Below are positions 16,491 to 36,304 of a stretch of 64,000 nucleotides of DNA, piece by piece. How positions within the stretch are numbered: the first letter of the stretch is position 1; each line of letters begins with the position of its first letter. Source of the stretch: Shigella phage ESH35; the sequence record ON528745. One strand, 5' to 3'. Below the pieces are notes generated by a model that was not told the DNA's origin, made no database searches, and was given only the letters and a program-made list of their open reading frames with translations. The position numbers and the translations under genes were made by a program.

Positions 16491-17506
16491 AAATTTTAAA
16501 TTTAGGTGATTGGCATTTAGGCGTTAAAGCCGATGATGAGTGGGTTCAATCCATTCAGTTAGATGGAATTAAACAAGCAATAGAATATTCTAAGAAAAAT
16601 GGAATTACTACCTGGATTCAATATGGTGATATTTTTGATGTGCGAAAAGCAATCACACATAAAACTATGGAGTTCGCTCGTGAAATAGTTCAAATGCTTG
16701 ATGATGCTGGTATTACCCTGCATACTGTTGTAGGAAACCATGATATGCACTTTAAAAATACTTTAACTCCAAATGCCTCTACTGAGCTTTTGGCTAAATA
16801 TCCTAATGTTAAAGTATATGATAAGCCTACTACAGTAGATTTTGACGGATGTTTAATTGATTTAATTCCTTGGATGTGTGAAGAAAATACTGGTGAAATT
16901 CTCGAGCACATAAAAACTTCTTCTGCTTCTTTTTGTGTTGGTCACTGGGAACTGAATGGATTTTATTTTTATAAAGGAATGAAATCTCACGGTCTTGAAC
17001 CTGATTTCCTTAAGACTTATAAAGAGGTGTGGTCTGGTCACTTCCATACTATTTCTGAGGCTGCAAACGTCAGATATATTGGGACACCATGGACACTAAC
17101 TGCAGGTGACGAGAATGACCCTCGTGGGTTCTGGATGTTTGATACAGAAACAGAACGAATGGAATTTATTCCAAACAACACTACCTGGCATCGTAGAATT
17201 CATTATCCATTTAAAGGAAAAATTGACTATAAAGATTTTACAAATCTATCAGTACGTGTTATAGTAACTGAAGTAGACAAAAATCTAACGAAGTTCGAAT
17301 CTGAACTAGAAAAAGTTGTGCATTCGTTACGAGTTGTGTCAAAGATTGATAACTCTGTCGAGTCAGATGACAGTGAAGAAGTTGAAGTTCAATCTCTTCA
17401 GACGTTGATGGAAGAATACATTAATGCAATTCCAGACATCACTGATTCTGACCGCGAAGCACTTATTCAATATGCAAATCAGTTATATGTAGAGGCAACG
17501 CAATGA
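16487..17506 (+). CDS. 47: recombination nuclease subunit gp47 (Mre11-like)
   Basis: 339 aa; phosphoesterase motifs DWHLG, GDIFD, GNHD, GHWE, GHFH. Confidence 0.9.
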   Translation: MKILNLGDWHLGVKADDEWVQSIQLDGIKQAIEYSKKNGITTWIQYGDIFDVRKAITHKTMEFAREIVQMLDDAGITLHTVVGNHDMHFKNTLTPNASTELLAKYPNVKVYDKPTTVDFDGCLIDLIPWMCEENTGEILEHIKTSSASFCVGHWELNGFYFYKGMKSHGLEPDFLKTYKEVWSGHFHTISEAANVRYIGTPWTLTAGDENDPRGFWMFDTETERMEFIPNNTTWHRRIHYPFKGKIDYKDFTNLSVRVIVTEVDKNLTKFESELEKVVHSLRVVSKIDNSVESDDSEEVEVQSLQTLMEEYINAIPDITDSDREALIQYANQLYVEATQ

Positions 17507-17766: not shown

Positions 17767-17953
17767 CATTAATGATGAATTCATAGCAAACATTGATTAT
17801 ACCGAAGAAGATTCTAGATATGTTGGAATAATTTATATCACATCAAAAACAGCACAAGGCGTTGTTTGCATGGCTGAATTTGATGAATACTTTTTAGATT
17901 ATGATGATATGATAGAATGGTCTAAAAGATACATTAAAAGGAATCTTTTGTGA
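17738..17953 (+). CDS. hypothetical protein (46.1 position)
   Basis: Track ORF 17690..17953 trimmed to internal ATG to reduce overlap; start uncertain. Confidence 0.4.
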   Translation: MHTVKFSTFDINDEFIANIDYTEEDSRYVGIIYITSKTAQGVVCMAEFDEYFLDYDDMIEWSKRYIKRNLL

Positions 17954-19638
17954 AGAATTTTAAACTAAACCGAGTTAGGTATCAAAATATAATGTCAGTA
18001 GGTGGAAATCCTATTGACATTCAATTAGATAAGGTTCAAAAAACTCTTATTACTGGACGAAATGGCGGTGGTAAGTCTACTATGTTAGAAGCCATCACAT
18101 TTGGGCTTTTTGGCAAGCCATTTCGTGATGTAAAGAAAGGTCAATTAATAAACAGCACAAATAAGAAAGAACTTTTAGTTGAACTGTGGATGGAATATGA
18201 TGAGAAAAAGTACTATATCAAAAGAGGACAAAAACCAAACGTTTTCGAAATCACCGTTAACGGTACACGTCTTAATGAATCTGCCAGCAGTAAAGATTTC
18301 CAAGCAGAATTTGAACAGCTTATCGGAATGTCATATGCCAGTTTCAAGCAGATTGTTGTCCTTGGTACAGCAGGGTATACCCCTTTCATGGGTTTGTCGA
18401 CCCCTGCACGAAGAAAGCTTGTGGAAGACCTGCTTGAGGTAGGAACATTAGCTGAAATGGATAAGCTTAATAAAGCACTAATACGTGAATTAAATTCACA
18501 AAACCAAGTGCTTGATGTTAAAAAAGATAGTATTATCCAACAAATTAAAATATATAATGATAACGTTGAACGCCAGAAAAAATTAACTGGTGACAACCTT
18601 ACTCGTCTTCAAAATATGTATGATGATTTGGCAAAAGAAGCTAGAACGCTAAAATCAGAAATAGAAGAAGCTAATGAAAGATTAGTTAATATTGTTTTAG
18701 ACGAAGACCCGACTGATGCATTTAATAAAATCGGTCAAGAAGCAGTTTTAATTAAATCAAAAATTGACTCGTATAATAAAGTCATTAATATGTATCATGA
18801 AGGTGGATTATGTCCAACCTGCTTGTCACAATTAAGTTCCGGTGATAAAGTTGTTTCTAAAATTAAAGATAAAGTTTCTGAATGTACGCATTCGTTTGAA
18901 CAGCTTTCAACACATCGTGATAATTTAAAAGTTCTTGTTGATGAATACCGAGATAATATTAAAACCCAGCAGTCGTTGGCAAATGATATTCGCAATAAAA
19001 AGCAATCTCTAATCACGACGGTAGATAAAGCTAAAAAAGTTAAAGCAGCTATAGAAAAAGCATCTTCTGAGTTTATTGACCATGCTGATGAAATAGCATT
19101 GCTTCAAGAAGAACTTGATAAAATTGTTAAGACAAAAACTAATTTAGTAATGGAAAAATACCACCGAGGAATTTTGACTGATATGCTCAAAGATTCTGGT
19201 ATTAAAGGTGCTATTATTAAAAAGTACATTCCATTATTTAATAAGCAGATTAACCATTATCTTAAAATAATGGAAGCGGATTATGTGTTTACATTAGATG
19301 AAGAATTTAATGAGACAATTAAATCCCGTGGTCGTGAAGATTTTAGTTATGCTTCATTCAGTCAAGGTGAAAAAGCGCGAATTGATATTGCTCTTTTATT
19401 TACTTGGCGTGATATTGCTGAAAAAGTTTCAGGTGTTAAAATAAGTTGTTTATTTCTTGATGAAGTGTATGACGGTGCATTTGATGCTGAAGGCATTAAA
19501 AATGTAGCTAAAATTTTAGATGGTTTGAAGGATACCAACTTCTTCATAATTTCGCATAAAGACCATGATCCGCAGGATTATGGACAGCATATTAAAATGG
19601 AAAAAGTTGGTAGATTTAGTGTTGCCACTATTAATTAA
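17950..19638 (+). CDS. 46: recombination ATPase subunit gp46 (Rad50/SbcC-like)
   Basis: 562 aa; Walker A GRNGGGKST, central coiled coil with CPTC zinc hook, C-terminal signature/Walker B. Confidence 0.9.
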   Translation: MKNFKLNRVRYQNIMSVGGNPIDIQLDKVQKTLITGRNGGGKSTMLEAITFGLFGKPFRDVKKGQLINSTNKKELLVELWMEYDEKKYYIKRGQKPNVFEITVNGTRLNESASSKDFQAEFEQLIGMSYASFKQIVVLGTAGYTPFMGLSTPARRKLVEDLLEVGTLAEMDKLNKALIRELNSQNQVLDVKKDSIIQQIKIYNDNVERQKKLTGDNLTRLQNMYDDLAKEARTLKSEIEEANERLVNIVLDEDPTDAFNKIGQEAVLIKSKIDSYNKVINMYHEGGLCPTCLSQLSSGDKVVSKIKDKVSECTHSFEQLSTHRDNLKVLVDEYRDNIKTQQSLANDIRNKKQSLITTVDKAKKVKAAIEKASSEFIDHADEIALLQEELDKIVKTKTNLVMEKYHRGILTDMLKDSGIKGAIIKKYIPLFNKQINHYLKIMEADYVFTLDEEFNETIKSRGREDFSYASFSQGEKARIDIALLFTWRDIAEKVSGVKISCLFLDEVYDGAFDAEGIKNVAKILDGLKDTNFFIISHKDHDPQDYGQHIKMEKVGRFSVATIN

Positions 19639-20348
19639 TGTTTGTGCTTACAGTTATCATTATGCCACCTTGATAAATTTCCGAAAGTGGTAACTTTACC
19701 ACAATGGACGCAAGTACCAGTCTTTTCAGTTTTCTTGCGTCCATTTGGATTTTTCTTGCAGAAATTTCTATGCGCTGCGATAACGCATTTCTTGCCTATC
19801 ATTCCGCAGAATTCGCAGGATGTTTCTTCAAGAATGATTGCTTTAAGCCCGTTTGAGATATTATTTCTGTGTTCTTTAGACATCGGTGGTCTAACTTTAG
19901 GATTAGGGTGATTCGGGCAGTTATCAAAATGCCATCGATTCATATTCCCGCTTAATCCGGACTTACCGCAATGTGGACAAGTTAGTCTTGCTTTATTAGC
20001 TACTGCATCAGACATTTTCTTTCGTGTCTCCTGGGAGAATTCTTTATTCTTTTCTATTTCCCAGAGTTTACGACGAATCCAACCGAAAGTTTTATTGTTA
20101 CGTTTAGCGTATTTCGTGGAAACTGTCATCATGTTAGCAGCATAGACTAATTTTGGTTCAGAAGGATAAATTTTTACTAAAAGTTGATGAGCTACATAGT
20201 GCTCTTCCGGTGTTAAATCTACTAAGTTTGAAGCATCATCGCTGCCATTTAAACAGCGTGGTATAATGTGATGAGATTCAGTATAGCAATCAAGTTTTCG
20301 AGATTTAGCATTAGAGATTAACTTTTCATAAATTAGTTTATAATTCAT
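19635..20348 (-). CDS. freestanding HNH homing endonuclease with three C-terminal zinc-finger repeats
   Basis: 237 aa; HNH motif ESHHIIPRCLNGSDDASNLVDLTPEEHYVAH; three CxxCG..RWH..NC modules; opposite strand to all neighbours; TATAAATA late-promoter match about 34 nt upstream. Confidence 0.8.
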   Translation of the reverse strand: MNYKLIYEKLISNAKSRKLDCYTESHHIIPRCLNGSDDASNLVDLTPEEHYVAHQLLVKIYPSEPKLVYAANMMTVSTKYAKRNNKTFGWIRRKLWEIEKNKEFSQETRKKMSDAVANKARLTCPHCGKSGLSGNMNRWHFDNCPNHPNPKVRPPMSKEHRNNISNGLKAIILEETSCEFCGMIGKKCVIAAHRNFCKKNPNGRKKTEKTGTCVHCGKVTTFGNLSRWHNDNCKHKH

Positions 20349-20381
20349 AACATATCCTTTTGATACAGCGAGTGATAAACA

Positions 20382-20389
20382 TATTTATA
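20382..20389 (-). promoter_or_regulatory. late promoter (TATAAATA) for the HNH endonuclease gene
   Basis: + strand TATTTATA, i.e. TATAAATA on - strand, about 34 nt upstream of the HNH ATG. Confidence 0.55.
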
Positions 20390-20399
20390 CGGAGGAACT

Positions 20400-20591
20400 G
20401 TGGCAGAATATTCAACTGGACAGCATCTATTAACTTTTCCTGAAATAAAACGATATATTCTGAGAAATAATTTTTCTAATGAAGAGCATATAGTTACTGA
20501 ATCTATGCTTAGGAATGCATTTAAAGCAGAATATACAAAAATAATGTCCAATAGAAATGAAGCTTGGACTGTTACTGATTATTATGACTAA
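20400..20591 (+). CDS. hypothetical protein (45.2 position)
   Basis: 63-aa ORF with GTG start after GGAGGA. Confidence 0.5.
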   Translation: MAEYSTGQHLLTFPEIKRYILRNNFSNEEHIVTESMLRNAFKAEYTKIMSNRNEAWTVTDYYD

Positions 20592-20600
20592 AGGTGTATT

Positions 20601-20990
20601 ATGACTAAAATTACTGTGAATTATACTGTTGATGTAAAAGATATTCAGCCAAAACACGTGCGTTCTGAATCAAATCCACAAAACCAAAATAAAATTCGTC
20701 GAGCATGGGTTTTGTCTCTTTCTGATAACGCAATGGAAGTTATTCAGAACAAAATTAAATCTGCACCTGCTCGTCATGCGTATTATGAAGCTATCGATCG
20801 TGAAGTAAGTAATAAATGGATTGAACTAATGCGCAAACATACTACAGAATCCCTAAACGCCGGTGCTAAATTTATTATGACTTCATGCGGTGAACGTCTT
20901 GAAGATGAATATTGCGGCAATGCAGATGAACGTCTGATTGTTGCTGCTCAAATTGTTGCCGAAACAATCGCAGCTGATTTTAATCGTTAA
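20601..20990 (+). CDS. rpbA: RNA polymerase-binding protein RpbA
   Basis: 129 aa (T4 RpbA length) immediately upstream of gene 45, matching T4 synteny. Confidence 0.7.
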
Positions 20991-21045
20991 TTGCTTTATT
21001 AAATTAGTTATAAAATTAAATCTCATTTGAATTGAAGGAAATTAC

Positions 21046-21732
21046 ATGAAACTGTCTAAAGATACTACTGCTCTGCTTAAAAATTTCGCTACTATTAACT
21101 CTGGTATTATGCTTAAATCAGGTCAATTTATTATGACTCGTGCGGTTAATGGTACAACTTATGCGGAAGCAAATATTTCTGACGTTATTGATTTTGATGT
21201 AGCAATTTACGATTTGAACGGTTTTCTCGGTATTCTGTCTCTAGTTAATGATGATGCAGAAATTTCCCAGTCAGAAGATGGAAATATTAAAATTGCTGAT
21301 GCCCGCTCAACAATTTTTTGGCCAGCAGCCGATCCGAGTACAGTAGTTGCTCCTAATAAACCAATTCCATTCCCGGTAGCATCTGTTGTTACTGAAATTA
21401 AAGCTGAAGACCTTCAACAGCTGTTGCGTGTATCTCGTGGTCTGCAGATTGATACAATTGCTATCACGGTAAAAGAAGGTAAAATCGTAATTAACGGTTT
21501 TAATAAAGTAGAAGATTCTGCTCTTACCCGTGTTAAATATTCTTTGACTCTTGGTGATTATGATGGTGAAAATACATTTAATTTCATTATCAATATGGCA
21601 AATATGAAAATGCAACCAGGAAATTATAAACTTCTGCTCTGGGCAAAAGGTAAACAAGGCGCTGCTAAATTTGAAGGTGAACACGCGAATTATGTAGTAG
21701 CTCTTGAAGCTGATTCTACCCACGATTTTTAA
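21046..21732 (+). CDS. 45: sliding clamp gp45
   Basis: 228 aa; MKLSKDTTALLKNFATINSGIMLKSGQFIMTRAV recognised as T4 gp45. Confidence 0.95.
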   Translation: MKLSKDTTALLKNFATINSGIMLKSGQFIMTRAVNGTTYAEANISDVIDFDVAIYDLNGFLGILSLVNDDAEISQSEDGNIKIADARSTIFWPAADPSTVVAPNKPIPFPVASVVTEIKAEDLQQLLRVSRGLQIDTIAITVKEGKIVINGFNKVEDSALTRVKYSLTLGDYDGENTFNFIINMANMKMQPGNYKLLLWAKGKQGAAKFEGEHANYVVALEADSTHDF

Positions 21733-23979: not shown

Positions 23980-26676
23980 ATGAAAGAATTTTATATCTCT
24001 ATCGAAACAGTCGGAAATAATATTGTTGAACGTTATATTGATGAAAATGGAAAGGAACGTACCCGTGAAGTAGAATATCTTCCGACTATGTTTAGGCATT
24101 GTAAGGAAGAGTCAAAATACAAAGACATTTATGGTAAAAATTGTGCTCCTCAAAAATTTCCATCAATGAAAGATGCACGAGACTGGATGAAACGAATGGA
24201 AGACATTGGTCTCGAAGCTCTCGGTATGAACGATTTTAAACTCGCTTATATCAGTGATACATATGGTTCAGAAATTGTTTATGACCGAAAATTTGTTCGT
24301 GTAGCTAACTGTGACATTGAGGTTACTGGTGATAAATTTCCTGACCCAATGAAAGCAGAATATGAAATTGATGCTATCACTCATTATGATTCAATTGACG
24401 ATCGTTTTTACGTCTTTGATTTGTTGAATTCAATGTACGGTTCAGTATCAAAATGGGATGCAAAGTTAGCTGCTAAGCTTGACTGTGAAGGTGGTGATGA
24501 AGTTCCTCAAGAAATTCTTGACCGAGTAATTTATATGCCATTTGATAATGAGCGTGATATGCTCATGGAATATATTAATCTCTGGGAACAGAAACGACCT
24601 GCTATTTTTACCGGTTGGAATATTGAGGGATTTGACGTTCCGTATATCATGAATCGTGTTAAAATGGTTCTCGGTGAACGTAGTATGAAACGCTTCTCTC
24701 CAATCGGTCGAGTAAAATCTAAACTAATTCAAAATATGTACGGTAGCAAAGAAATTTATTCTATTGATGGCGTATCTATTCTTGATTATTTAGATTTATA
24801 CAAGAAGTTCGCATTTACTAATTTGCCATCGTTCTCTTTGGAATCAGTTGCTCAACATGAAACCAAAAAAGGTAAATTGCCGTACGATGGTCCTATTAAT
24901 AAACTTCGTGAGACTAATCATCAACGATACATTAGTTATAACATCATTGACGTAGAATCAGTTCAAGCAATTGATAAAATTCGTGGGTTTATCGATCTAG
25001 TTTTAAGTATGTCTTATTACGCTAAAATGCCTTTTTCTGGTGTAATGAGTCCTATTAAAACTTGGGATGCTATTATTTTTAACTCACTGAAAGGTGAACA
25101 TAAGGTTATTCCTCAACAAGGTTCGCACGTTAAACAGAGTTTTCCAGGTGCATTTGTGTTTGAACCTAAACCGATTGCTCGTCGATACATTATGAGTTTT
25201 GACTTGACGTCTCTGTATCCTAGCATTATTCGTCAGGTTAACATTAGTCCTGAGACTATTCGTGGGCAGTTTAAAGTTCATCCAATTCATGAATATATCG
25301 CAGGAACAGCTCCTAAGCCAAGTGATGAATATTCTTGCTCTCCGAATGGATGGATGTATGATAAGCACCAAGAAGGTATCATTCCAAAGGAAATCGCTAA
25401 AGTATTTTTCCAGCGTAAAGATTGGAAAAAGAAAATGTTCGCGGAAGAAATGAATGCCGAAGCTATTAAAAAGATTATTATGAAAGGTGCAGGGTCTTGC
25501 TCAACTAAACCAGAAGTTGAACGATATGTTAAGTTCAATGATGATTTCTTAAACGAATTATCGAATTACACTGAATCTGTTCTTAATAGTCTGATTGAAG
25601 AATGTGAAAAAGCTGCTACACTCGCTAACACAAATCAGCTGAACCGTAAAATTCTTATTAACAGTCTTTATGGTGCTCTTGGTAATATTCATTTCCGCTA
25701 CTATGATTTGCGAAATGCTACTGCTATCACAATTTTCGGTCAAGTCGGTATTCAGTGGATTGCTCGTAAAATTAATGAGTATCTAAATAAAGTATGTGGA
25801 ACTAATGGTGAAGATTTCATCGCAGCAGGTGATACTGATTCGGTATATGTTTGTGTAGATAAAGTTATTGAAAAAGTAGGTCTTGACCGCTTTAAAGAAC
25901 AAAATGATTTAGTTGAATTCATGAATCAGTTCGGTAAGAAAAAGATGGAACCTATGATTGATGTTGCATATCGTGAGTTATGTGATTATATGAATAATCG
26001 CGAGCATCTGATGCATATGGACCGTGAAGCTATTTCTTGTCCTCCGCTTGGTTCAAAGGGTGTTGGTGGATTTTGGAAAGCGAAAAAACGTTATGCTCTG
26101 AACGTTTATGATATGGAAGATAAGCGATTTGCTGAACCACATCTAAAAATCATGGGTATGGAAACTCAGCAGAGTTCAACACCAAAAGCAGTACAAGAAG
26201 CTCTCGAAGAAAGTATTCGTCGTATTCTTCAAGAAGGTGAAGAGTCTGTCCAAGAATATTACAAGAACTTCGAGAAAGAATATCGTCAACTTGACTATAA
26301 AGTTATTGCTGAAGTAAAAACTGCGAACGATATAGCGAAATATGATGATAAAGGTTGGCCAGGATTTAAATGCCCGTTCCATATTCGTGGTGTGCTAACT
26401 TATCGTCGAGCTGTTAGCGGTTTAGGTGTAGCTCCAATTTTGGATGGAAATAAAGTAATGGTTCTTCCATTGCGTGAAGGAAATCCATTTGGTGACAAAT
26501 GCATTGCTTGGCCGTCGGGTACAGAACTTCCAAAAGAAATTCGTTCTGACGTACTGTCTTGGATTGACTACTCAACTTTGTTCCAAAAATCGTTTGTTAA
26601 ACCGCTTGCGGGCATGTGTGAATCGGCTGGTATGGACTATGAAGAAAAAGCTTCGTTAGACTTCCTGTTTGGCTGA
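23980..26676 (+). CDS. 43: DNA polymerase gp43 (family B, with 3'-5' exonuclease)
   Basis: 898 aa; Exo I DIE, polymerase motifs DxxSLYPS and YGDTDS; translational operator hairpin upstream. Confidence 0.97.
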   Translation: MKEFYISIETVGNNIVERYIDENGKERTREVEYLPTMFRHCKEESKYKDIYGKNCAPQKFPSMKDARDWMKRMEDIGLEALGMNDFKLAYISDTYGSEIVYDRKFVRVANCDIEVTGDKFPDPMKAEYEIDAITHYDSIDDRFYVFDLLNSMYGSVSKWDAKLAAKLDCEGGDEVPQEILDRVIYMPFDNERDMLMEYINLWEQKRPAIFTGWNIEGFDVPYIMNRVKMVLGERSMKRFSPIGRVKSKLIQNMYGSKEIYSIDGVSILDYLDLYKKFAFTNLPSFSLESVAQHETKKGKLPYDGPINKLRETNHQRYISYNIIDVESVQAIDKIRGFIDLVLSMSYYAKMPFSGVMSPIKTWDAIIFNSLKGEHKVIPQQGSHVKQSFPGAFVFEPKPIARRYIMSFDLTSLYPSIIRQVNISPETIRGQFKVHPIHEYIAGTAPKPSDEYSCSPNGWMYDKHQEGIIPKEIAKVFFQRKDWKKKMFAEEMNAEAIKKIIMKGAGSCSTKPEVERYVKFNDDFLNELSNYTESVLNSLIEECEKAATLANTNQLNRKILINSLYGALGNIHFRYYDLRNATAITIFGQVGIQWIARKINEYLNKVCGTNGEDFIAAGDTDSVYVCVDKVIEKVGLDRFKEQNDLVEFMNQFGKKKMEPMIDVAYRELCDYMNNREHLMHMDREAISCPPLGSKGVGGFWKAKKRYALNVYDMEDKRFAEPHLKIMGMETQQSSTPKAVQEALEESIRRILQEGEESVQEYYKNFEKEYRQLDYKVIAEVKTANDIAKYDDKGWPGFKCPFHIRGVLTYRRAVSGLGVAPILDGNKVMVLPLREGNPFGDKCIAWPSGTELPKEIRSDVLSWIDYSTLFQKSFVKPLAGMCESAGMDYEEKASLDFLFG

Positions 26677-31084: not shown

Positions 31085-32512
31085 GTGGTAGAAATTATTC
31101 TTTCTCATCTTATATTTGATCAAGCTTATTTTTCAAAAGTTTGGCCATATATGGATTCAGAATATTTTGAAAGTGGTCCAGCTAAAAATACATTCAAATT
31201 AATTAAATCTCATGTTAATGAGTACCATAGCGTTCCATCTATTAATGCGTTAAATGTTGCATTAGAAAATAGTTCATTTACTGAAACAGAATATTCTGGT
31301 GTAAAAACACTTATTTCAAAACTGGCTGATTCTCCGGAAGACCACAGCTGGTTAGTAAAAGAAACAGAAAAATATGTTCAGCAAAGGGCGATGTTTAACG
31401 CCACATCTAAAATAATTGAAATTCAAACTAATGCTGAGCTTCCTCCGGAAAAACGAAATAAGAAAATGCCGGATGTTGGTGCTATTCCTGACATCATGCG
31501 CCAAGCATTATCAATTTCATTTGATAGTTACGTTGGTCATGATTGGATGGATGACTACGAAGCACGTTGGCTATCTTATATGAATAAAGCTCGTAAGGTT
31601 CCATTTAAACTCAGAATTCTAAACAAAATTACGAAAGGCGGAGCTGAAACTGGAACGCTGAACGTTTTAATGGCTGGCGTTAACGTTGGTAAGTCATTAG
31701 GATTGTGTTCATTGGCAGCAGATTATTTACAGCTCGGACATAATGTTCTTTACATTTCCATGGAAATGGCAGAAGAAGTCTGCGCTAAACGTATTGATGC
31801 TAATATGCTTGATGTTTCTCTTGATGACATTGATGATGGGCATATTTCTTACGCTGAGTATAAAGGAAAAATGGAAAAATGGCGTGAGAAATCTACTCTC
31901 GGTCGTTTAATCGTTAAACAGTATCCTACTGGTGGAGCAGATGCTAATACATTTCGATCGCTTTTAAACGAATTAAAGCTCAAGAAGAATTTTGTTCCAA
32001 CAATCATTATTGTCGACTATCTGGGTATTTGTAAATCTTGCCGCATTAGAGTTTACTCAGAAAATAGTTACACAACTGTTAAAGCCATTGCAGAGGAATT
32101 ACGTGCTCTTGCTGTTGAAACCGAAACTGTTCTTTGGACTGCAGCACAGGTTGGTAAACAAGCTTGGGATTCTTCTGATGTTAACATGAGCGATATTGCA
32201 GAATCTGCCGGTCTTCCAGCAACAGCTGATTTTATGCTTGCGGTCATTGAAACCGAGGAGTTAGCAGCTGCTGAACAACAACTTATTAAGCAAATCAAAT
32301 CACGATATGGTGATAAGAATAAATGGAATAAGTTTTTGATGGGTGTTCAAAAAGGAAATCAGAAATGGGTAGAAATTGAACAAGATTCTACTCCAACCGA
32401 AGTGAGTGAAGTAGCAGGTTCACAACAGATTCAGGCTGAACAGAATCGCTATCAAAGAAACGAATCAGCTCGAGCTCAGTTAGATGCTTTGGCAAATGAA
32501 TTAAAATTTTAG
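31085..32512 (+). CDS. 41: replicative DNA helicase gp41 (DnaB family)
   Basis: 475 aa; Walker A GVNVGKS; GTG start. Confidence 0.95.
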   Translation: MVEIILSHLIFDQAYFSKVWPYMDSEYFESGPAKNTFKLIKSHVNEYHSVPSINALNVALENSSFTETEYSGVKTLISKLADSPEDHSWLVKETEKYVQQRAMFNATSKIIEIQTNAELPPEKRNKKMPDVGAIPDIMRQALSISFDSYVGHDWMDDYEARWLSYMNKARKVPFKLRILNKITKGGAETGTLNVLMAGVNVGKSLGLCSLAADYLQLGHNVLYISMEMAEEVCAKRIDANMLDVSLDDIDDGHISYAEYKGKMEKWREKSTLGRLIVKQYPTGGADANTFRSLLNELKLKKNFVPTIIIVDYLGICKSCRIRVYSENSYTTVKAIAEELRALAVETETVLWTAAQVGKQAWDSSDVNMSDIAESAGLPATADFMLAVIETEELAAAEQQLIKQIKSRYGDKNKWNKFLMGVQKGNQKWVEIEQDSTPTEVSEVAGSQQIQAEQNRYQRNESARAQLDALANELKF

Positions 32513-32545
32513 TTTACAAGCTGACAAGACTATGGTATAGTAGTC
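32512..32545 (+). promoter_or_regulatory. early promoter upstream of dmd with 9-bp inverted repeat across the -10
   Basis: GTTTACAAGCTGA CAAGACTAT GGT ATAGTCTTG. Confidence 0.5.
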
Positions 32546-32570
32546 TTGTTGGTTAAATGAGGAGATTGTT

Positions 32571-32747
32571 ATGGAATTGGTAAAGGTAGTTTTTATGGGG
32601 TGGTTTAAGAATGAAAGCATGTTTACTAAAGAAATCACAATGATGAAAGATGACGTTCAATGGGCTACTACTCAATATGCTGAAGTTAATAAAGCATTAG
32701 TTGAAGCTTTCATTGATGACAAGAAAGTATGTGAAGTGGATTGCTGA
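32571..32747 (+). CDS. dmd: Dmd antitoxin (inhibitor of RnlA/LsoA)
   Basis: Not in track (58 aa); MELVKVVFMGWFKNESMFTKEITMMKDDVQWATTQYAEVNKALVEAFIDDKKVCEVDC recognised as T4 Dmd. Confidence 0.8.
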   Translation: MELVKVVFMGWFKNESMFTKEITMMKDDVQWATTQYAEVNKALVEAFIDDKKVCEVDC

Positions 32748-32754
32748 GGATAAT

Positions 32755-33012
32755 ATGCATATTGTTTTATTTAAACCTACTCCGTATAACGTCAGGAAAA
32801 ATACTCAATTCAAAGCACTTATTGCAGATACATGGGAATTGGTGTTAGATATTCCAGCAGAAGAAAGTCCTCCATTTGGTCGAGTGGAATTTATTAAGTT
32901 TGCTGTACGTCCTACGAAGAGGCAGATTCGTCAGTATAAAAGGTATTTTCGTAAAATCGTTAAGCTAGAGAAACAGTTTGTAACATGTGATTACGCAGAA
33001 GTTTTAAAATAG
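32755..33012 (+). CDS. gene 61.4-position protein (possible TifA-like ToxN inhibitor)
   Basis: Track ORF 32701 (TTG) trimmed to ATG after GAGGATAAT; 85 aa; assignment is by synteny and memory only. Confidence 0.5.
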   Translation: MHIVLFKPTPYNVRKNTQFKALIADTWELVLDIPAEESPPFGRVEFIKFAVRPTKRQIRQYKRYFRKIVKLEKQFVTCDYAEVLK

Positions 33013-33072
33013 CTGTTTACTTTTGTTGGAAATTGAGATACTATATAAACATAAACTACTGAGGAGATTATC

Positions 33073-33366
33073 ATGAAAAAATTTATTTTTGCTACAATTT
33101 TTACTTTGGCTTCTTGTGCTGCTCAGCCTGCTATGGCAGGTTATGATAAAGATTTGTGCGAATGGTCTATGACTGCTGATCAGACTGAGGTTGAAACTCA
33201 AATTGAAGCAGATATTATGAATATCGTTGAGCGCGATCGCCCTGAAATGAAAGCTGAAGTGCAAAAACAGCTTAAGTCTGGTGGTGTAATGCAGTATAAT
33301 TATGTTCTATATTGCGATAAAAACTTTAATAATAAAAATATCATCGCTGAAGTGGTAGGTGAATAA
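33073..33366 (+). CDS. sp: Spackle periplasmic protein
   Basis: 97 aa with signal peptide MKKFIFATIFTLASCAAQPAMA; T4 Sp length and position. Confidence 0.75.
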   Translation: MKKFIFATIFTLASCAAQPAMAGYDKDLCEWSMTADQTEVETQIEADIMNIVERDRPEMKAEVQKQLKSGGVMQYNYVLYCDKNFNNKNIIAEVVGE

Positions 33367-33992
33367 TGCTCTATCAAATGCACAAGTGCAAAGATACATA
33401 CAAATATAAAGGTGCCCAGTGTTATATCATTAATCGTGAAAACGCGGGTCCAGGTCATTCGCATCAATCACGGTTTGTATTCGTTAAAAACAATGAAATT
33501 ATAGCAGTTGCTAATTATATGCTTGTGACTAATGATGTTAATCCGGTGCCTTTTACATATTATAATCTAATGGACTTGGCGTACGATTATAATTGGTTTA
33601 ATCATGACACTTTGGCTCATATCGAAGGCGTAGGATTTGACATCTCTTATTCTAGTTACTCGTTGTGTCCTATGAGCAGAGCTCATAAAGAGCCTGAATA
33701 TTTTTCATTTCGTCGGCGTGTAGACTCTAAACGCAGTACAGAGTATGTCGGTGGAATCTTTGTTAAAGATAATCGAATTACTCGCATTATTTATCCTTTG
33801 GGCTGTGGTCAAAAAGATATTGATGTTGATTTAGACTTTACTGAAAACATCATTAATCATATTGCTTCTGTGTATTTTGATATTGATCACAAAATTGTAA
33901 TATGTGGATATGAATTACCATCAGAAAAACAGTCTAAAGTAGATGTTTCTATTGATGACCAAATTTTTAATGCTTTTATGAATAGAGGTTAA
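33366..33992 (+). CDS. gene 61.2-position protein (possible AdfA-like anti-DarT factor)
   Basis: 208 aa; syntenic with T4 61.2; function from memory, unverified. Confidence 0.5.
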   Translation: MLYQMHKCKDTYKYKGAQCYIINRENAGPGHSHQSRFVFVKNNEIIAVANYMLVTNDVNPVPFTYYNLMDLAYDYNWFNHDTLAHIEGVGFDISYSSYSLCPMSRAHKEPEYFSFRRRVDSKRSTEYVGGIFVKDNRITRIIYPLGCGQKDIDVDLDFTENIINHIASVYFDIDHKIVICGYELPSEKQSKVDVSIDDQIFNAFMNRG

Positions 33993-33993
33993 T

Positions 33994-34158
33994 ATGAAAA
34001 CATATAAAGAATTTATTAAAGAAGATATGGTAGCTGGAGATTCAGGTGGTAATCCTGAAAATATCTCTACTGGAACAACGTCAGGTGCTGTAGTAAATAA
34101 AGGTCCTGAACAGATTCCTAAAAAGAAAAAAGAGGAATCTAAAGAAAAAGAAGAGTAA
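33994..34158 (+). CDS. small Lys/Glu-rich protein (61.1 position)
   Basis: Not in track; about 54-aa ORF between 61.2 stop and gene 61 start. Confidence 0.35.
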   Translation: MKTYKEFIKEDMVAGDSGGNPENISTGTTSGAVVNKGPEQIPKKKKEESKEKEE

Positions 34159-34160
34159 AA

Positions 34161-35189
34161 ATGTCATTAATACCTTGGATTGATAATGAGTTTGCATACC
34201 GTGCATTGGCTCATTTACCTAAATTCGCACAAGTAAATAATAGTTCAACTTTTAAATTACGGTTTAGATGTCCCGTTTGTGGAGATTCAAAAACCGATCA
34301 AAATAAAGCCCGTGGATGGTATTATGGCGATAATAATGAAGGAAATATTCATTGTTATAACTGTAACTATCATGCACCAATTGGAATATATTTAAAGGAG
34401 TTTGAACCTGATTTATATCGTGAGTATATCTTTGAAATAAGAAAAGAAAAAGGTAAAAGTCGTCCAGTAGAAAAACCTAAAGAACTTCCTAAACAACCTG
34501 AGAAAAAAATAATTAAATCTCTTCCGTCATGTATTAGATTAGATAAACTGGCGGAAGACCATCCAATTATAAAATATGTAAAAGCTCGTTGTATTCCAAA
34601 GGATAAATGGAAATATCTTTGGTTTACAACCGAATGGCCTAAATTAGTTAATAGTATAGCGCCAGGAACATATAAAAAGGAAATACCTGAGCCTCGTCTT
34701 GTTATTCCAATTTATAATGCTAACGGAAAAGCCGAGTCTTTTCAAGGCCGTGCATTAAAGAAAGATGCTCCTCAAAAATATATCACCATAAAAGCTTATC
34801 CTGAAGCAACAAAAATCTATGGCGTTGAACGAGTTAAAGATGGTGATGTATATGTTCTAGAAGGACCTATAGATTCACTTTTTATTGAAAATGGTATAGC
34901 TATTACGGGTGGTCAATTAGACCTAGAAGTTGTTCCATTTAAAGATAGACGTGTGTGGGTTTTAGATAATGAACCTCGTCATCCTGACACTATTAAACGA
35001 ATGACTAAATTAGTTGATGCAGGAGAAAGGGTTATGTTTTGGGACAAATCTCCCTGGAAATCAAAAGATGTTAATGATATGATTAGAAAGGAAGGTGCAA
35101 CCCCTGAACAAATTATGGAATATATGAAAAATAATATTGCTCAGGGGTTGATGGCTAAAATGCGGTTATCTAAATATGCTAAGATTTAA
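34161..35189 (+). CDS. 61: DNA primase gp61
   Basis: 342 aa; zinc ribbon CPVCGDS...CYNCNYH, TOPRIM core; recognised T4 gp61. Confidence 0.95.
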   Translation: MSLIPWIDNEFAYRALAHLPKFAQVNNSSTFKLRFRCPVCGDSKTDQNKARGWYYGDNNEGNIHCYNCNYHAPIGIYLKEFEPDLYREYIFEIRKEKGKSRPVEKPKELPKQPEKKIIKSLPSCIRLDKLAEDHPIIKYVKARCIPKDKWKYLWFTTEWPKLVNSIAPGTYKKEIPEPRLVIPIYNANGKAESFQGRALKKDAPQKYITIKAYPEATKIYGVERVKDGDVYVLEGPIDSLFIENGIAITGGQLDLEVVPFKDRRVWVLDNEPRHPDTIKRMTKLVDAGERVMFWDKSPWKSKDVNDMIRKEGATPEQIMEYMKNNIAQGLMAKMRLSKYAKI

Positions 35190-35386
35190 ATTAACCCAAC
35201 TAAAGCGAATGCTAAATCTACAAATGTATCAAGAGTAACTACTGGAATATTAATACCATGTGCAATTGCAACAGGTGATAGAATAAAGTTCCAGAGTAAA
35301 ATTCCTACCATAGCAGAAATAGTAAAAGCTATACGTTTTTTATTACCTTTTATGGCATTAACAAGTGCCATTAATTTTTGTACCAT
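35186..35386 (-). CDS. antisense small membrane protein
   Basis: 66-aa ORF on opposite strand with GGAGGA 5 nt upstream of ATG; two hydrophobic segments; stop overlaps gene 61 stop. Confidence 0.4.
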   Translation of the reverse strand: MVQKLMALVNAIKGNKKRIAFTISAMVGILLWNFILSPVAIAHGINIPVVTLDTFVDLAFALVGLI

Positions 35387-35978: not shown

Positions 35979-36046
35979 CAGCTCGTCTTAAAAGCCGCGA
36001 GAATTTATTATAAATAATCATGTAATTTAAATAAAAGGAGAATTAC

Positions 36047-36304
36047 ATGGCTAGTACTCGCGGTTATGTTAATATCAAAACATTTGACCAAGCAGTTGAT
36101 GGTGGTACAATTCAGGGTAAAGAAATTTCTGTAGCTTTCCCTCTTTATTCTGATGTTCACAAAATTTCTGGTGCTCATTATCAGACATTCCCTTCTGAAA
36201 AAGCAGCATATTCTACAGTATATGAAGAAAATCAGCGTACTAAATGGATCACTGCTAATGAAGGTCTTTGGACTGTTACACCGACACCAGGTGTCGGTGG
36301 TTAA
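36047..36304 (+). CDS. soc: small outer capsid protein Soc
   Basis: 85 aa; MASTRGYVNIKTF..ISVAFPLYSDVHKISGAHYQTFPSEKAAYSTVYEENQRT recognised as T4 Soc. Confidence 0.9.
   Translation: MASTRGYVNIKTFDQAVDGGTIQGKEISVAFPLYSDVHKISGAHYQTFPSEKAAYSTVYEENQRTKWITANEGLWTVTPTPGVGG

Follow-up and report, generated by a model that had tools for sequence, protein, structure and literature searches.

The closest described relatives of the gene examined here are the mob homing endonuclease genes of phage T4. To our knowledge, MobE is the only Mob enzyme whose target has been mapped. The T4 mob genes are all co-oriented with their neighbours, and mobA, mobC, mobD and mobE have been described as promoter-less cassettes (PMC2988022). 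MobE acts on the adjacent gene, nrdB, by a nick about 120 nt within it, whereupon co-conversion follows and immunity is provided by polymorphism (PMC2790892). The sole T4 homing endonuclease gene opposed to its neighbours is segD (PMC2988022). SegF and SegG bring about intronless homing and marker exclusion, and SegG converts from a distant cleavage site (PMC2993671, PMC2988022).

We analysed a 64-kb stretch of DNA from a T4-like phage, hereafter the window, in which a gene for a predicted HNH endonuclease separates two replication/recombination genes, 46 and 45.2. Sequence comparison and structural modelling make it probable, at roughly 0.85, that the feature belongs to the T-even 'Mob' family of HNH enzymes and forms a free-standing homing endonuclease cassette without an intron. 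Like the T4 Mob proteins (MobA-E), the product has an N-terminal HNH domain, homologous to those of MobB and MobC, and like the T4 mob genes its gene is free-standing between conserved genes and sporadic in distribution. Mob family C-terminal regions, which presumably bind DNA, differ from member to member, as is also the case here (PMC2790892). The predicted action resembles that of MobE: a conserved gene next to the endonuclease gene is nicked, co-conversion follows and polymorphism confers immunity. However, the 46/45.2 slot differs from the T4 mob slots, and the endonuclease gene, unlike the T4 mob genes, runs against its neighbours; it also lies behind a late-promoter box of its own. T4 MobB is also without the three CCHC fingers of the protein described here.

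Orientation against the neighbours is a feature shared with T4 segD, but segD belongs to the GIY-YIG family and has no identifiable promoter, whereas the present gene is of the HNH type with a consensus late promoter kept in orthologues. SegF and SegG, as we propose for this locus, come from free-standing genes, cleave an essential gene next to their own and carry flanking markers along; both belong to the GIY-YIG family and have been shown to make double-strand cuts, whereas here it is population data only that point to co-conversion. I-HmuI, I-TevIII and I-TevI share the modular arrangement of nuclease, linker or NUMOD and DNA-binding domain as well as late or middle expression, and I-TevI has a late promoter and a zinc finger in its linker. 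I-HmuI and I-TevIII are intron-encoded HNH enzymes, while the gene here is not intron-encoded.

Gene position and organisation

The coding sequence occupies 19635..20348 on the minus strand and, from an ATG start, specifies 237 aa and a stop (ORF listing and sequence). Its convergent neighbour and presumed target, gene 46 (17950..19638, plus strand), encodes a Rad50/SbcC-like recombination nuclease subunit of 562 aa, as judged by homologous annotations. Gene 45.2 lies on the other side (20400-20591, plus strand; Pfam Gp45_2, E 2.6e-35). The endonuclease and gene 46 stops have a TTAA palindrome in common at 19635-19638, with the gene 46 TAA at 19636-19638 on the plus strand and the endonuclease stop at 19637-19635 on the minus strand. 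An earlier note on this DNA had described a 237-aa minus-strand ORF with a stop overlapping that of gene 46, and had called it the sole antisense gene of its block. Both the ORF and the overlap are as described, and the third statement holds for ORFs of at least 150 aa at window positions 1-58,597, where the endonuclease ORF stands alone on the minus strand in the ORF listing. The same listing contains no paralogue of the endonuclease in the 64-kb window. An intrinsic terminator was sought 3' of the gene and within the cassette, and none was found.

Domain architecture of the protein

The free-standing Mob/HNH type that had been proposed for the ORF is supported. T4 MobB is matched with 44% identity over 126 aa (BLASTP, E 7e-30), and BLASTP finds no MobB similarity beyond residue ~110. 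The protein falls in PHROG 655, 'homing endonuclease', at E 1.8e-68. A Foldseek comparison with viral models (BFVD) returned 85 matches at E <= 1e-3, including annotated Mob-like HNH endonucleases; T4 MobB scored 3.4e-11 and MobC 1.3e-9. Sequence and fold searches against solved structures, solved HNH homing enzymes included, gave no significant match.

The nuclease domain comprises residues 1-100 (20049..20348, minus strand), with support from alignment, MobB similarity, Foldseek and an AF2 model. Its HNH motif reads E24-H26-H27 ... N41 ... H50 ... H54. The codons of H26, H27, N41, H50 and H54 fall within 20187-20279, and these residues are invariant in an alignment of 47 homologues. The motif claimed by the earlier note is thus present, and the loss of catalytic residues on alignment, which the note had named as counting against it, is not seen. 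In the AF2 model the HNH core is a beta-beta-alpha fold with strands at 24-27 and 42-45, a helix at 47-60 and a pLDDT of ~96; the whole protein, which has three finger modules besides this core, is modelled at a mean pLDDT of 90. Pfam HNH (PF01844) matches residues 23-43 with 17.0 bits (E 0.0068), below its gathering threshold of 21.4 bits, and the orthologues are likewise sub-threshold. Because all residues of the motif are present, the low score reflects the sensitivity of the Pfam model and not loss of the motif.

The nuclease is joined to the first finger by a NUMOD3-like helix, residues 104-117, with the sequence FSQETRKKMSDAVA (19998..20039, minus strand). Here too the Pfam match is sub-threshold (PF07460, residues 103-115, 12.6 bits, E 0.13, against a gathering threshold of 20.4 bits); PF07460 is present in many more distant homologues. 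A second NUMOD3-like helix lies at residues 156-170, and AF2 places helices at 106-117 and 158-170. The three C-terminal zinc-finger repeats that had been read from the sequence are C-x2-C ... H-x3-C units, and their ligands are kept in seven orthologues. Each is modelled as a beta-hairpin followed by a helix. Finger 1 (C124/C127/H140/C144; 19917..19988, minus strand) has strands at 121-123 and 130-132 and a helix at 133-143. Finger 2 (C178/C181/H193/C197; 19752..19826, minus strand) has strands at 175-177 and 184-186 and a helix at 187-199. Finger 3 (C213/C216/H229/C233; 19650..19721, minus strand) has strands at 210-212 and 219-221 and a helix at 222-232, and all four of its ligands are invariant in the 47 homologues. 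The dN/dS of the gene is 0.06-0.13, with synonymous divergence saturated between genera. The gene is intact, and purifying selection acts on it.

Late-promoter consensus and leader

A late-promoter match about 34 nt upstream of the ATG had been claimed, and the T4-type late promoter consensus TATAAATA is indeed found at 20382..20389 (minus strand), 33 nt upstream of the endonuclease ATG. The octamer is depleted in the 64-kb window, with 2 copies on both strands together versus 9.8 +/- 2.9 expected. The second copy precedes the late capsid gene soc by 30 nt, and both copies stand ~30 nt ahead of an ATG. Because there are just two copies where 9.8 are expected, and the other precedes soc, the box before the endonuclease gene is not a chance match. 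MHG19, ST0 and P0020 keep the full TATAAATA octamer upstream of their orthologues, and in 8/8 lineages the gene is preceded by a TAAATA core.

Between promoter and start codon is a 5' untranslated leader (20349..20381, minus strand) with a block, TTTATC...GCTGTATC.AA.AAGGA, conserved in the window, MHG19, ST0 and P0018. Its Shine-Dalgarno sequence, AAGGA at 20355-20359 (minus strand), lies 6 nt before the ATG and, like the promoter, is conserved in orthologues. RNA hairpins that sequester the ribosome-binding site have been reported for mobE and I-TevI. Leader folds of the window, ST0 and MHG19 gave z-scores of -0.7 to +0.9 and lend no support to such a hairpin. An I-TevI-like operator was also considered by comparing the promoter and leader with the gene 46 3' end or the empty-site spacer. 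The best 22-mers matched at 14-16 of 22 positions (p >=0.13 versus shuffles), and the best-match positions disagreed between lineages, so this candidate was rejected.

Many phage homing endonuclease genes are defunct. The protein could accordingly be catalytically dead or have no target left, in which case it would be a relic in decay or a regulator that binds DNA, comparable to the defunct I-TevIII in T4, and the sub-threshold Pfam HNH score would agree with this. We consider it very improbable. Every HNH residue and all twelve zinc ligands are conserved, a dN/dS of ~0.1 has been held while synonymous sites became saturated between genera, the loci inspected include no frameshifted copies, and the promoter and Shine-Dalgarno sequence have been kept as well.

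Distribution and cassette junctions

The gene is already annotated in public genomes (RB32, RB51, RB68) and is apparently uncharacterised; we found no paper in the literature that characterises the endonuclease. RB32ORF054w is the same gene and has carried the annotation "homing endonuclease, similar to mobB" since the RB32 record. Its copies in RB32, RB51, RB68, RB33, Aplg8, slur07 and others occupy the same place. The window protein is 99.6% identical to the RB51 copy, and a 2.3-kb query spanning the gene is 99.3% identical in nucleotides to RB51 and RB68. Two 3' end variants occur: RB51 and RB68 have that of the window, with 237 aa and the TTAA stop overlap, while RB32 has 238 aa and an 8-nt overlap. 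Mob-like HNH genes without names have been counted in these phages, two in RB32 and one in RB51/RB70 (PMC2993671), and the present gene is presumably among them.

At >=95% amino acid identity the gene occurs in 58 of about 600 GenBank/RefSeq Tequatrovirus records (~10% of flank matches). This count comes from a junction-spanning query; apart from these there are Ac3, with a recoded copy, and KMB22, which has the allele without the endonuclease gene. The carriers include several species (RB32, aplgate, slur07, zeezeethirty). About 540 Tequatrovirus records with matching flanks are without the gene, T4, T2 and T6 among them, and this sporadic occurrence is seen among genomes that otherwise hardly differ. 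In Mosigvirus, 15 records have it and about 150 do not. Six IMG/VR loci anchored on rpbA are all without the gene and served as extra empty sites. The absence from T4 that the earlier note had stated is therefore correct, and the ORF is not found in every T-even reference genome. The specificity for one phage lineage that the note derived from it does not stand. In addition to the 58 Tequatrovirus records, orthologues with 42-63% identity were found in 7/7 other T4-like lineages examined, always antisense and abutting the 3' end of the gp46 homologue: MHG19 (unclassified Tevenvirinae), ST0 (Mosigvirus), KpCCP1 (Slopekvirus), EBPL (Pseudotevenvirus) and three metagenomic T4-like contigs.

The cassette junctions are sharp and lie at homologous positions in Tequatrovirus and Mosigvirus. 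In the empty T4 site, a spacer of 55 nt separates genes 46 and 45.2. The earlier note had taken the cassette for an insertion at the 46-45.2 junction; that junction is empty in T4, T2 and T6 as supposed, but the cassette replaces sequence there and is not a simple insertion. Three elements of the empty site give way to it: the final codons of gene 46, the 55-nt spacer, which contains a MotA-type promoter, and the start of 45.2. The left junction covers the last ~16 codons and the stop of gene 46 (19591..19638, plus strand). The right junction, at 20391..20405 (plus strand), was placed by comparing the window and RB32 with T4 and T2, and ST0 with JK45 and RB69. The right end of the cassette provides gene 45.2 with a GGAGG Shine-Dalgarno sequence, GTG as start codon and an additional Ala codon, so that the 45.2 N-terminus reads MAEYS in the window versus MEYS. 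Since the cassette brings both C-terminal codons of gp46 and the ribosome-binding site and start of 45.2, its clean loss would be harder.

A weak candidate for a MotA-type middle promoter, TGCTTTA-N13-TATTAT, is embedded in the endonuclease coding sequence at 19839..19864, on the plus strand used by 45.2 and rpbA. In the window this pattern is more frequent than expected (15 versus 4.8 +/- 2.2). This candidate is identical in four other endonuclease-positive Tequatroviruses, themselves ~98% identical overall, and is absent at this position in distant orthologues; ST0 has TGCTTTA-N12-TATAAT at its right end. From its sequence and place, it might stand in for the spacer promoter that the cassette removed.

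The distribution bears on whether the gene is active in homing at all. It could instead be an ancestral resident, inherited vertically and repeatedly lost by deletion or recombination. Its retention would then be due to a benefit to the phage, for example exclusion of markers from co-infecting relatives or the provision of promoter or start signals to its neighbours. The same slot and orientation in seven diverged lineages, at only 42-63% identity, speak for an old association. Purifying selection and the supply of the 45.2 start and gp46 C-terminus by the cassette agree with this, and KMB22, possibly also JK45 and RB69, resemble losses by recombination. We nevertheless think vertical residence rather unlikely as the main explanation. 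The cassette and its linked allele are found in several Tequatrovirus species at >=95% protein identity, which fits horizontal spread through recombination. Moreover, a phage that excludes its competitors and an element that homes do the same thing at the molecular level, and thus the two accounts differ more in emphasis than in mechanism.

Gene 46 and the candidate target

If the gene is a homing cassette, its target is probably the 3' end of gene 46, either inside a variable patch or at the stop-codon junction, as far as can be judged from aligned sequences. The first candidate location is a hypervariable patch between the Walker B and H-loop codons of gene 46 (19420..19545, plus strand), which is 78-80% identical to T4 between flanks of 95-100%. 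Tequatrovirus has three patch alleles, and 58/58 endonuclease-positive records share one of them; 12 records match the patch at 80-90% identity. In two genera, pairs of endonuclease-free phages have their divergence hot spot in this patch as well, with T4/T2 at 67% and JK45/JS09 at 61%. Patchy divergence is found elsewhere in these genomes too, e.g. in gene 47. A search for the lineage that donated the gene 46 allele linked to the endonuclease found none closer than 77-79% among the lineages fetched.

The second candidate location is the left junction, 19591..19638. KMB22 is a natural recombinant, with the endonuclease-linked patch allele and no endonuclease gene, and turns T4-type between 19585 and 19591. 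Fixed differences of the carriers lie at 19591, 19600, 19602, 19612 and 19619, then from 19622 on. With KMB22 counted, no flanking interval other than 19591-19638 shows strict linkage to the endonuclease gene in Tequatrovirus. In Mosigvirus, the carrier ST0 departs from the empty-site JK45 and RB69 only after ...CGATTTACTGTAATG, from the last four gene 46 codons onward; up to this junction the two endonuclease-free phages have the carrier's gene 46 allele. Because they share it, the comparison does not allow the patch to be assigned as the immunity determinant.

These observations raise the possibility that the enzyme cuts the 46/45.2 junction, i.e. the gene 46 stop region and empty-site spacer, which the earlier note had favoured, with immunity gained through replacement by the cassette as in intron and intein homing. 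The restriction of the ST0 differences to the last four codons, the confinement of strictly linked Tequatrovirus differences to the junction interval and the occurrence of CGATTTACTGTAATG in the empty sites of both genera would all be expected from such a target. We regard it as a serious candidate at somewhat less than even odds. It leaves the upstream patch allele of 58/58 carriers unexplained, as well as the patch hot spot between endonuclease-free genomes of two genera, and the targets of MobE and SegG lie in the neighbouring gene and not at the insertion point (PMC2988022, PMC2790892). A site 90-190 nt inside gene 46 fits the comparative data at least as well as the junction. The population pattern, a flanking allele shared by 58/58 carriers and by KMB22 too, fits co-conversion and also a single origin. 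The linkage of the patch allele could stem from one ancestral invasion followed by ordinary recombination, and not from obligatory co-conversion.

Discussion

Taken together, the domain architecture, promoter and distribution are consistent with a Mob-type homing cassette that would act as follows. In the late phase of infection, RNA polymerase carrying gp55, the late sigma factor, would start at the TATAAATA box, and the endonuclease transcript would run antisense to the early 46-45.2-rpbA-45 operon. The two NUMOD3-like helices of the protein and its three beta-beta-alpha zinc fingers of the CCHC type would bind DNA, and the HNH domain would thereby come to lie where it can nick or cut the 3' end of gene 46 in a co-infecting, cassette-free relative. 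Recombination-dependent repair would then copy the donor cassette together with the adjoining gene 46 allele, which would be refractory to cleavage. Co-conversion of this kind would account for the single gene 46 3' allele in 58/58 carriers and for the mosaic hot spot from Walker B to the H-loop in two genera.

A bolder reading, which we put forward tentatively and hold to be doubtful, is that the gene represents a position-specific, deeply conserved Mob subfamily whose three tandem CCHC fingers read the Walker B-to-H-loop sequence of gene 46. Repeated cleavage, co-conversion and escape, all due to this single endonuclease family, would then have made the sharply bounded gp46 patch in several T4-like genera, and the antisense late promoter would be an adaptation by which expression of the endonuclease is separated in time from its early target operon.

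The mobile element was spotted correctly, but it had been annotated before and carries little weight as a discovery. Its antisense orientation and own late promoter give it a layout unlike that of all T4 endonuclease genes in a 2010 review. The comparative data narrow the candidate target to ~220 nt at the gene 46 3' end, and natural test substrates are provided by alleles of the T4, T2 and endonuclease types and by that of the KMB22 recombinant. Should the gp46 hot spot prove to be linked to the endonuclease, the locus would be a clean case of a homing endonuclease shaping variation of a core recombination protein across genera. If, in addition, the fingers do read gene 46, a selfish nuclease would be driving the diversification of an essential recombination ATPase.

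Genomic context and late-promoter box

The endonuclease ORF occupies 19635..20348 on the minus strand, begins with ATG and encodes 237 aa (MNYKLIYEKLI...YTESHHIIPRCLNGSDDASNLVDLTPEEHYVAH). Gene 46 lies on the plus strand at 17950..19638 (562 aa). Because its TAA stop falls at 19636-19638 and the antisense TAA is read from 19637-19635 on the minus strand, the two stops share the palindrome TTAA, the overlap described in the earlier note. In the window's ORF listing, the endonuclease ORF is the sole minus-strand ORF of at least 150 aa between 1 and 58,597; on that scale, it is indeed the only antisense gene of its block. The window contains neither mobB, which in T4 adjoins a-gt (T4 segment L027, 86-880), nor another paralogue, as tblastn with the protein found only itself.

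The late-promoter match claimed at about 34 nt upstream of the ATG is a TATAAATA box 33 nt upstream (20389-20382, minus strand), with AAGGA 6 nt ahead of the start codon. Over both strands, the window has 2 copies of TATAAATA, against 9.8 +/- 2.9 in shuffles, an approximately five-fold depletion in what is an early-gene region. The second copy, at 36009-36016 on the plus strand, is 30 nt upstream of the capsid gene soc (36047-36304, plus strand; 85-aa ORF; Pfam Soc, E 1.4e-44), and thus both copies are at positions expected of a late promoter. A TAAATA core is found 19-45 nt upstream of the ATG in 8/8 lineages, four of them having the full TATAAATA, and the leader block TTTATC...GCTGTATC.AA.AAGGA is preserved among Tevenvirinae copies. 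The gene would be transcribed late, by gp55-RNA polymerase.

The protein is a Mob-like endonuclease

The HNH motif and three zinc-finger repeats claimed from sequence are intact. Residues E24, H26, H27, P30, G35, N41, H50 and H54 are invariant in a 47-member alignment, so the loss of HNH residues named in advance as contrary evidence was not seen in these sequences. The C-terminal units, C124/C127/H140/C144, C178/C181/H193/C197 and C213/C216/H229/C233, keep 12/12 ligands across seven orthologues of 42-99% identity. By codon comparison, purifying selection acts on the gene (dN/dS 0.06-0.13).

The protein falls in PHROGs family 655, 'homing endonuclease' (E 1.8e-68). In the proposed comparison with T-even mob-type HNH proteins, T4 MobB is 44% identical across the N-terminal 126 residues (E 7e-30) and does not align past them. 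Pfam HNH (17.0 bits) and NUMOD3 (12.6 bits) were both sub-threshold. The alignment-based AlphaFold model is confident (mean pLDDT 90.1) and has a beta-beta-alpha core, two helices at NUMOD3-like segments and a beta-hairpin-plus-helix module at each of the three finger motifs. A comparison of the model with predicted viral structures gave T4 MobB (3.4e-11), T4 MobC (1.3e-9) and many proteins annotated as Mob-like or HNH homing endonucleases, in all 85 matches at E <= 1e-3. Solved structures gave no significant match, the weak top matches being tandem C2H2 finger arrays and HNH domains. The endonuclease fits the published definition of Mob proteins, in which the N-terminal HNH domain is conserved and each member has a C-terminal domain of its own (PMC2790892). 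The T4 Mob proteins are its closest known entities; it differs from their layout in being antisense with its own late promoter box. By the account of a 2010 review, segD, which lacks a discernible promoter, is the one T4 homing endonuclease gene that is not oriented like its neighbours (PMC2988022).

Annotation and distribution

The 2.3-kb query 18800-21100, which spans the gene, matches phages RB51 and RB68 at 99.3% identity; there the ORF is annotated as RB32ORF054w, 'homing endonuclease'; the RB32 record adds 'similar to mobB'. A table in a 2010 review lists two unnamed mob-like HNH genes in RB32 and one in RB51/RB70 (PMC2993671), presumably including the counterpart of this gene. We found no publication characterising it. 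The endonuclease is an already annotated, apparently uncharacterised member of a known family: the earlier note was right about its kind, and the novelty it implied does not stand.

As that note stated, T4 has no gene here: 55 nt of spacer separate 46 from 45.2, and T2 and T6 are empty too. The whole query is covered in 59 of 599 flank-matching phage records; by a junction-spanning query, these are one anomalous record, Ac3, and 58 ordinary carriers, a count that includes many GenBank/RefSeq duplicates. Orthologues occur in Yersinia phage MHG19 (63% identity), Mosigvirus ST0 (58%), Slopekvirus KpCCP1 (42%), Pseudotevenvirus EBPL (43%) and three metagenomic contigs (56%, 48% and 45%). The ST0 copy (238 aa, intact, between genes 46 and 45.2; segment L009 2501-3217, NC_041990.1 about 25,203-25,919) carries no annotation in the RefSeq record. 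Each lies antisense, with the gp46 homologue, whose 3' end it abuts or overlaps, on one side and a gene resembling 45.2 or rpbA on the other, so the supposed restriction to one phage lineage fails. Within Mosigvirus, 15 records have the gene and about 150 do not.

The Ac3 record (OK040907.1, about 31,960-35,212; segments L025 and L026) contains an anomalous block of about 3.25 kb corresponding to window 17953-20350 and encompassing gene 46, the endonuclease gene and, upstream, an additional pseudogene of about 860 nt that resembles an endonuclease gene. Its proteins are 99% identical to those of the window (556/563 and 237/238 aa) and its DNA merely 74-77%, with 359/434 and 141/167 differences at codon position 3. 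GC3 is 0.60 versus 0.23-0.31, the block's overall GC content is 45-51% where the surrounding sequence has about 35%, and on its right side the block stops precisely at the endonuclease start codon. Natural divergence does not account for such a block, which resembles the product of synonymous recoding or codon optimisation, or else an artefact of assembly or of the record.

An unrelated 855-nt endonuclease-like ORF, called 'mobD' or 'homing endonuclease', is present in some Tequatroviruses and absent from the window. It sits on the gene 46 strand between 46.1 and the gene 46 5' end: Aplg8 (L013 1-635), KIT03 (L018 186-1040), T6 ('T6ORF054', L023 3496-4350) and T2 (L016 188-1040, split into two ORFs). 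Aplg8 gene 46 has endonuclease genes on both flanks.

The cassette replaces the 46/45.2 junction

Alignment of the 46-45.2 junction with T4 and T2, as the earlier note proposed, gave sharp cassette junctions and showed that the cassette replaces sequence and is not simply inserted. In empty sites the order is ...CGATTTACTGTAATG, 1-4 further codons and a stop, a spacer, then ATG GA(A/G) TAT TCA... In two genera, represented by T4 (L001, reverse complement) and by JK45, RB69 and JS09 (L020-L022), this spacer carries a MotA box and a -10 element (TGCTTTA/GCTTTA-N11-12-TATAAT) within a hairpin, TATAAT being in the loop. Filled sites supply other gp46 last codons, lack the spacer with its MotA element, and bring GGAG(G), a start and an extra Ala codon for 45.2 (MAEYS versus MEYS; GTG GCA in Tequatrovirus, ATG GCG in ST0).

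At window 19569-19647, compared with segments L012-L015, carriers fall into two junction variants. The RB51/RB68 variant, in the present window and 7 records, ends gp46 with ...SVATIN and the endonuclease with ...KHKH, the stops overlapping in TTAA; the RB32 variant (about 51 records) ends them with ...SLAKIS and ...KYKPS, with an 8-nt overlap.

A MotA-type pattern at 19839-19864 (plus strand), inside the endonuclease gene, might substitute for the lost spacer promoter. Such patterns are three-fold enriched in the window (15 vs 4.8 expected), mostly on the plus strand, one lying directly upstream of gene 45 (20992-21016). The copy at 19839-19864 is not conserved among distant orthologues, so we regard it as no more than a weak candidate.

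A linked gene 46 allele and the likely target

Around the cassette, window and T4 mostly agree at 95-100% identity, a few 100-nt intervals being at 81-94%; in the final 240 nt of gene 46 the value falls to 78-80%. Gene 47 (window 16500-16800) has its own localised drop, to 88% and 81% per 100 nt within surroundings of 95-100%, so mosaic patchiness also occurs outside the 3' end of gene 46.

Tequatroviruses have three alleles of the gene 46 3' segment, T4-type, T2-type and carrier type, the last in 58/58 carriers (at least 92% identity over the junction query). Even endonuclease-free genome pairs diverge most at nt 1500-1600 of gene 46 (window about 19450-19549), a stretch that separates the Walker B from the H-loop codons: identity per 100 nt is 84, 67 and 81% for T4 versus T2 (93-100% elsewhere) and 95, 61 and 76% for JK45 versus JS09 (95-100% elsewhere). 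Endonuclease-free KMB22 (OR539217.1, L024; window 19218-19640) has the carrier-type allele to about 19585, T4-type sequence from 19591 and a T4-type empty 46/45.2 site, and is a natural recombinant. Given this switch, strict linkage to the endonuclease gene is confined to 19591-19638. In Mosigvirus, the carrier ST0 equals endonuclease-free JK45 and RB69 up to the last four gene 46 codons.

We infer that the NUMOD3-like helices and three fingers would bind DNA and that the HNH domain would nick or cut the gene 46 3' end in cassette-free co-infecting relatives, whereupon recombinational repair would copy in the cassette and linked allele. The earlier note took the 46/45.2 junction as the likely cleavage target; the enzyme would then recognise the stop codon and spacer that the cassette replaces. 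We slightly favour a break inside the hypervariable patch, which would make co-conversion of the patch obligatory, in the manner of MobE in nrdB and SegG in gene 32. With a break in the patch, KMB22, JK45 and RB69 would have been converted to resistance without taking up the gene. KMB22 is an ideal substrate for telling patch immunity from junction immunity.
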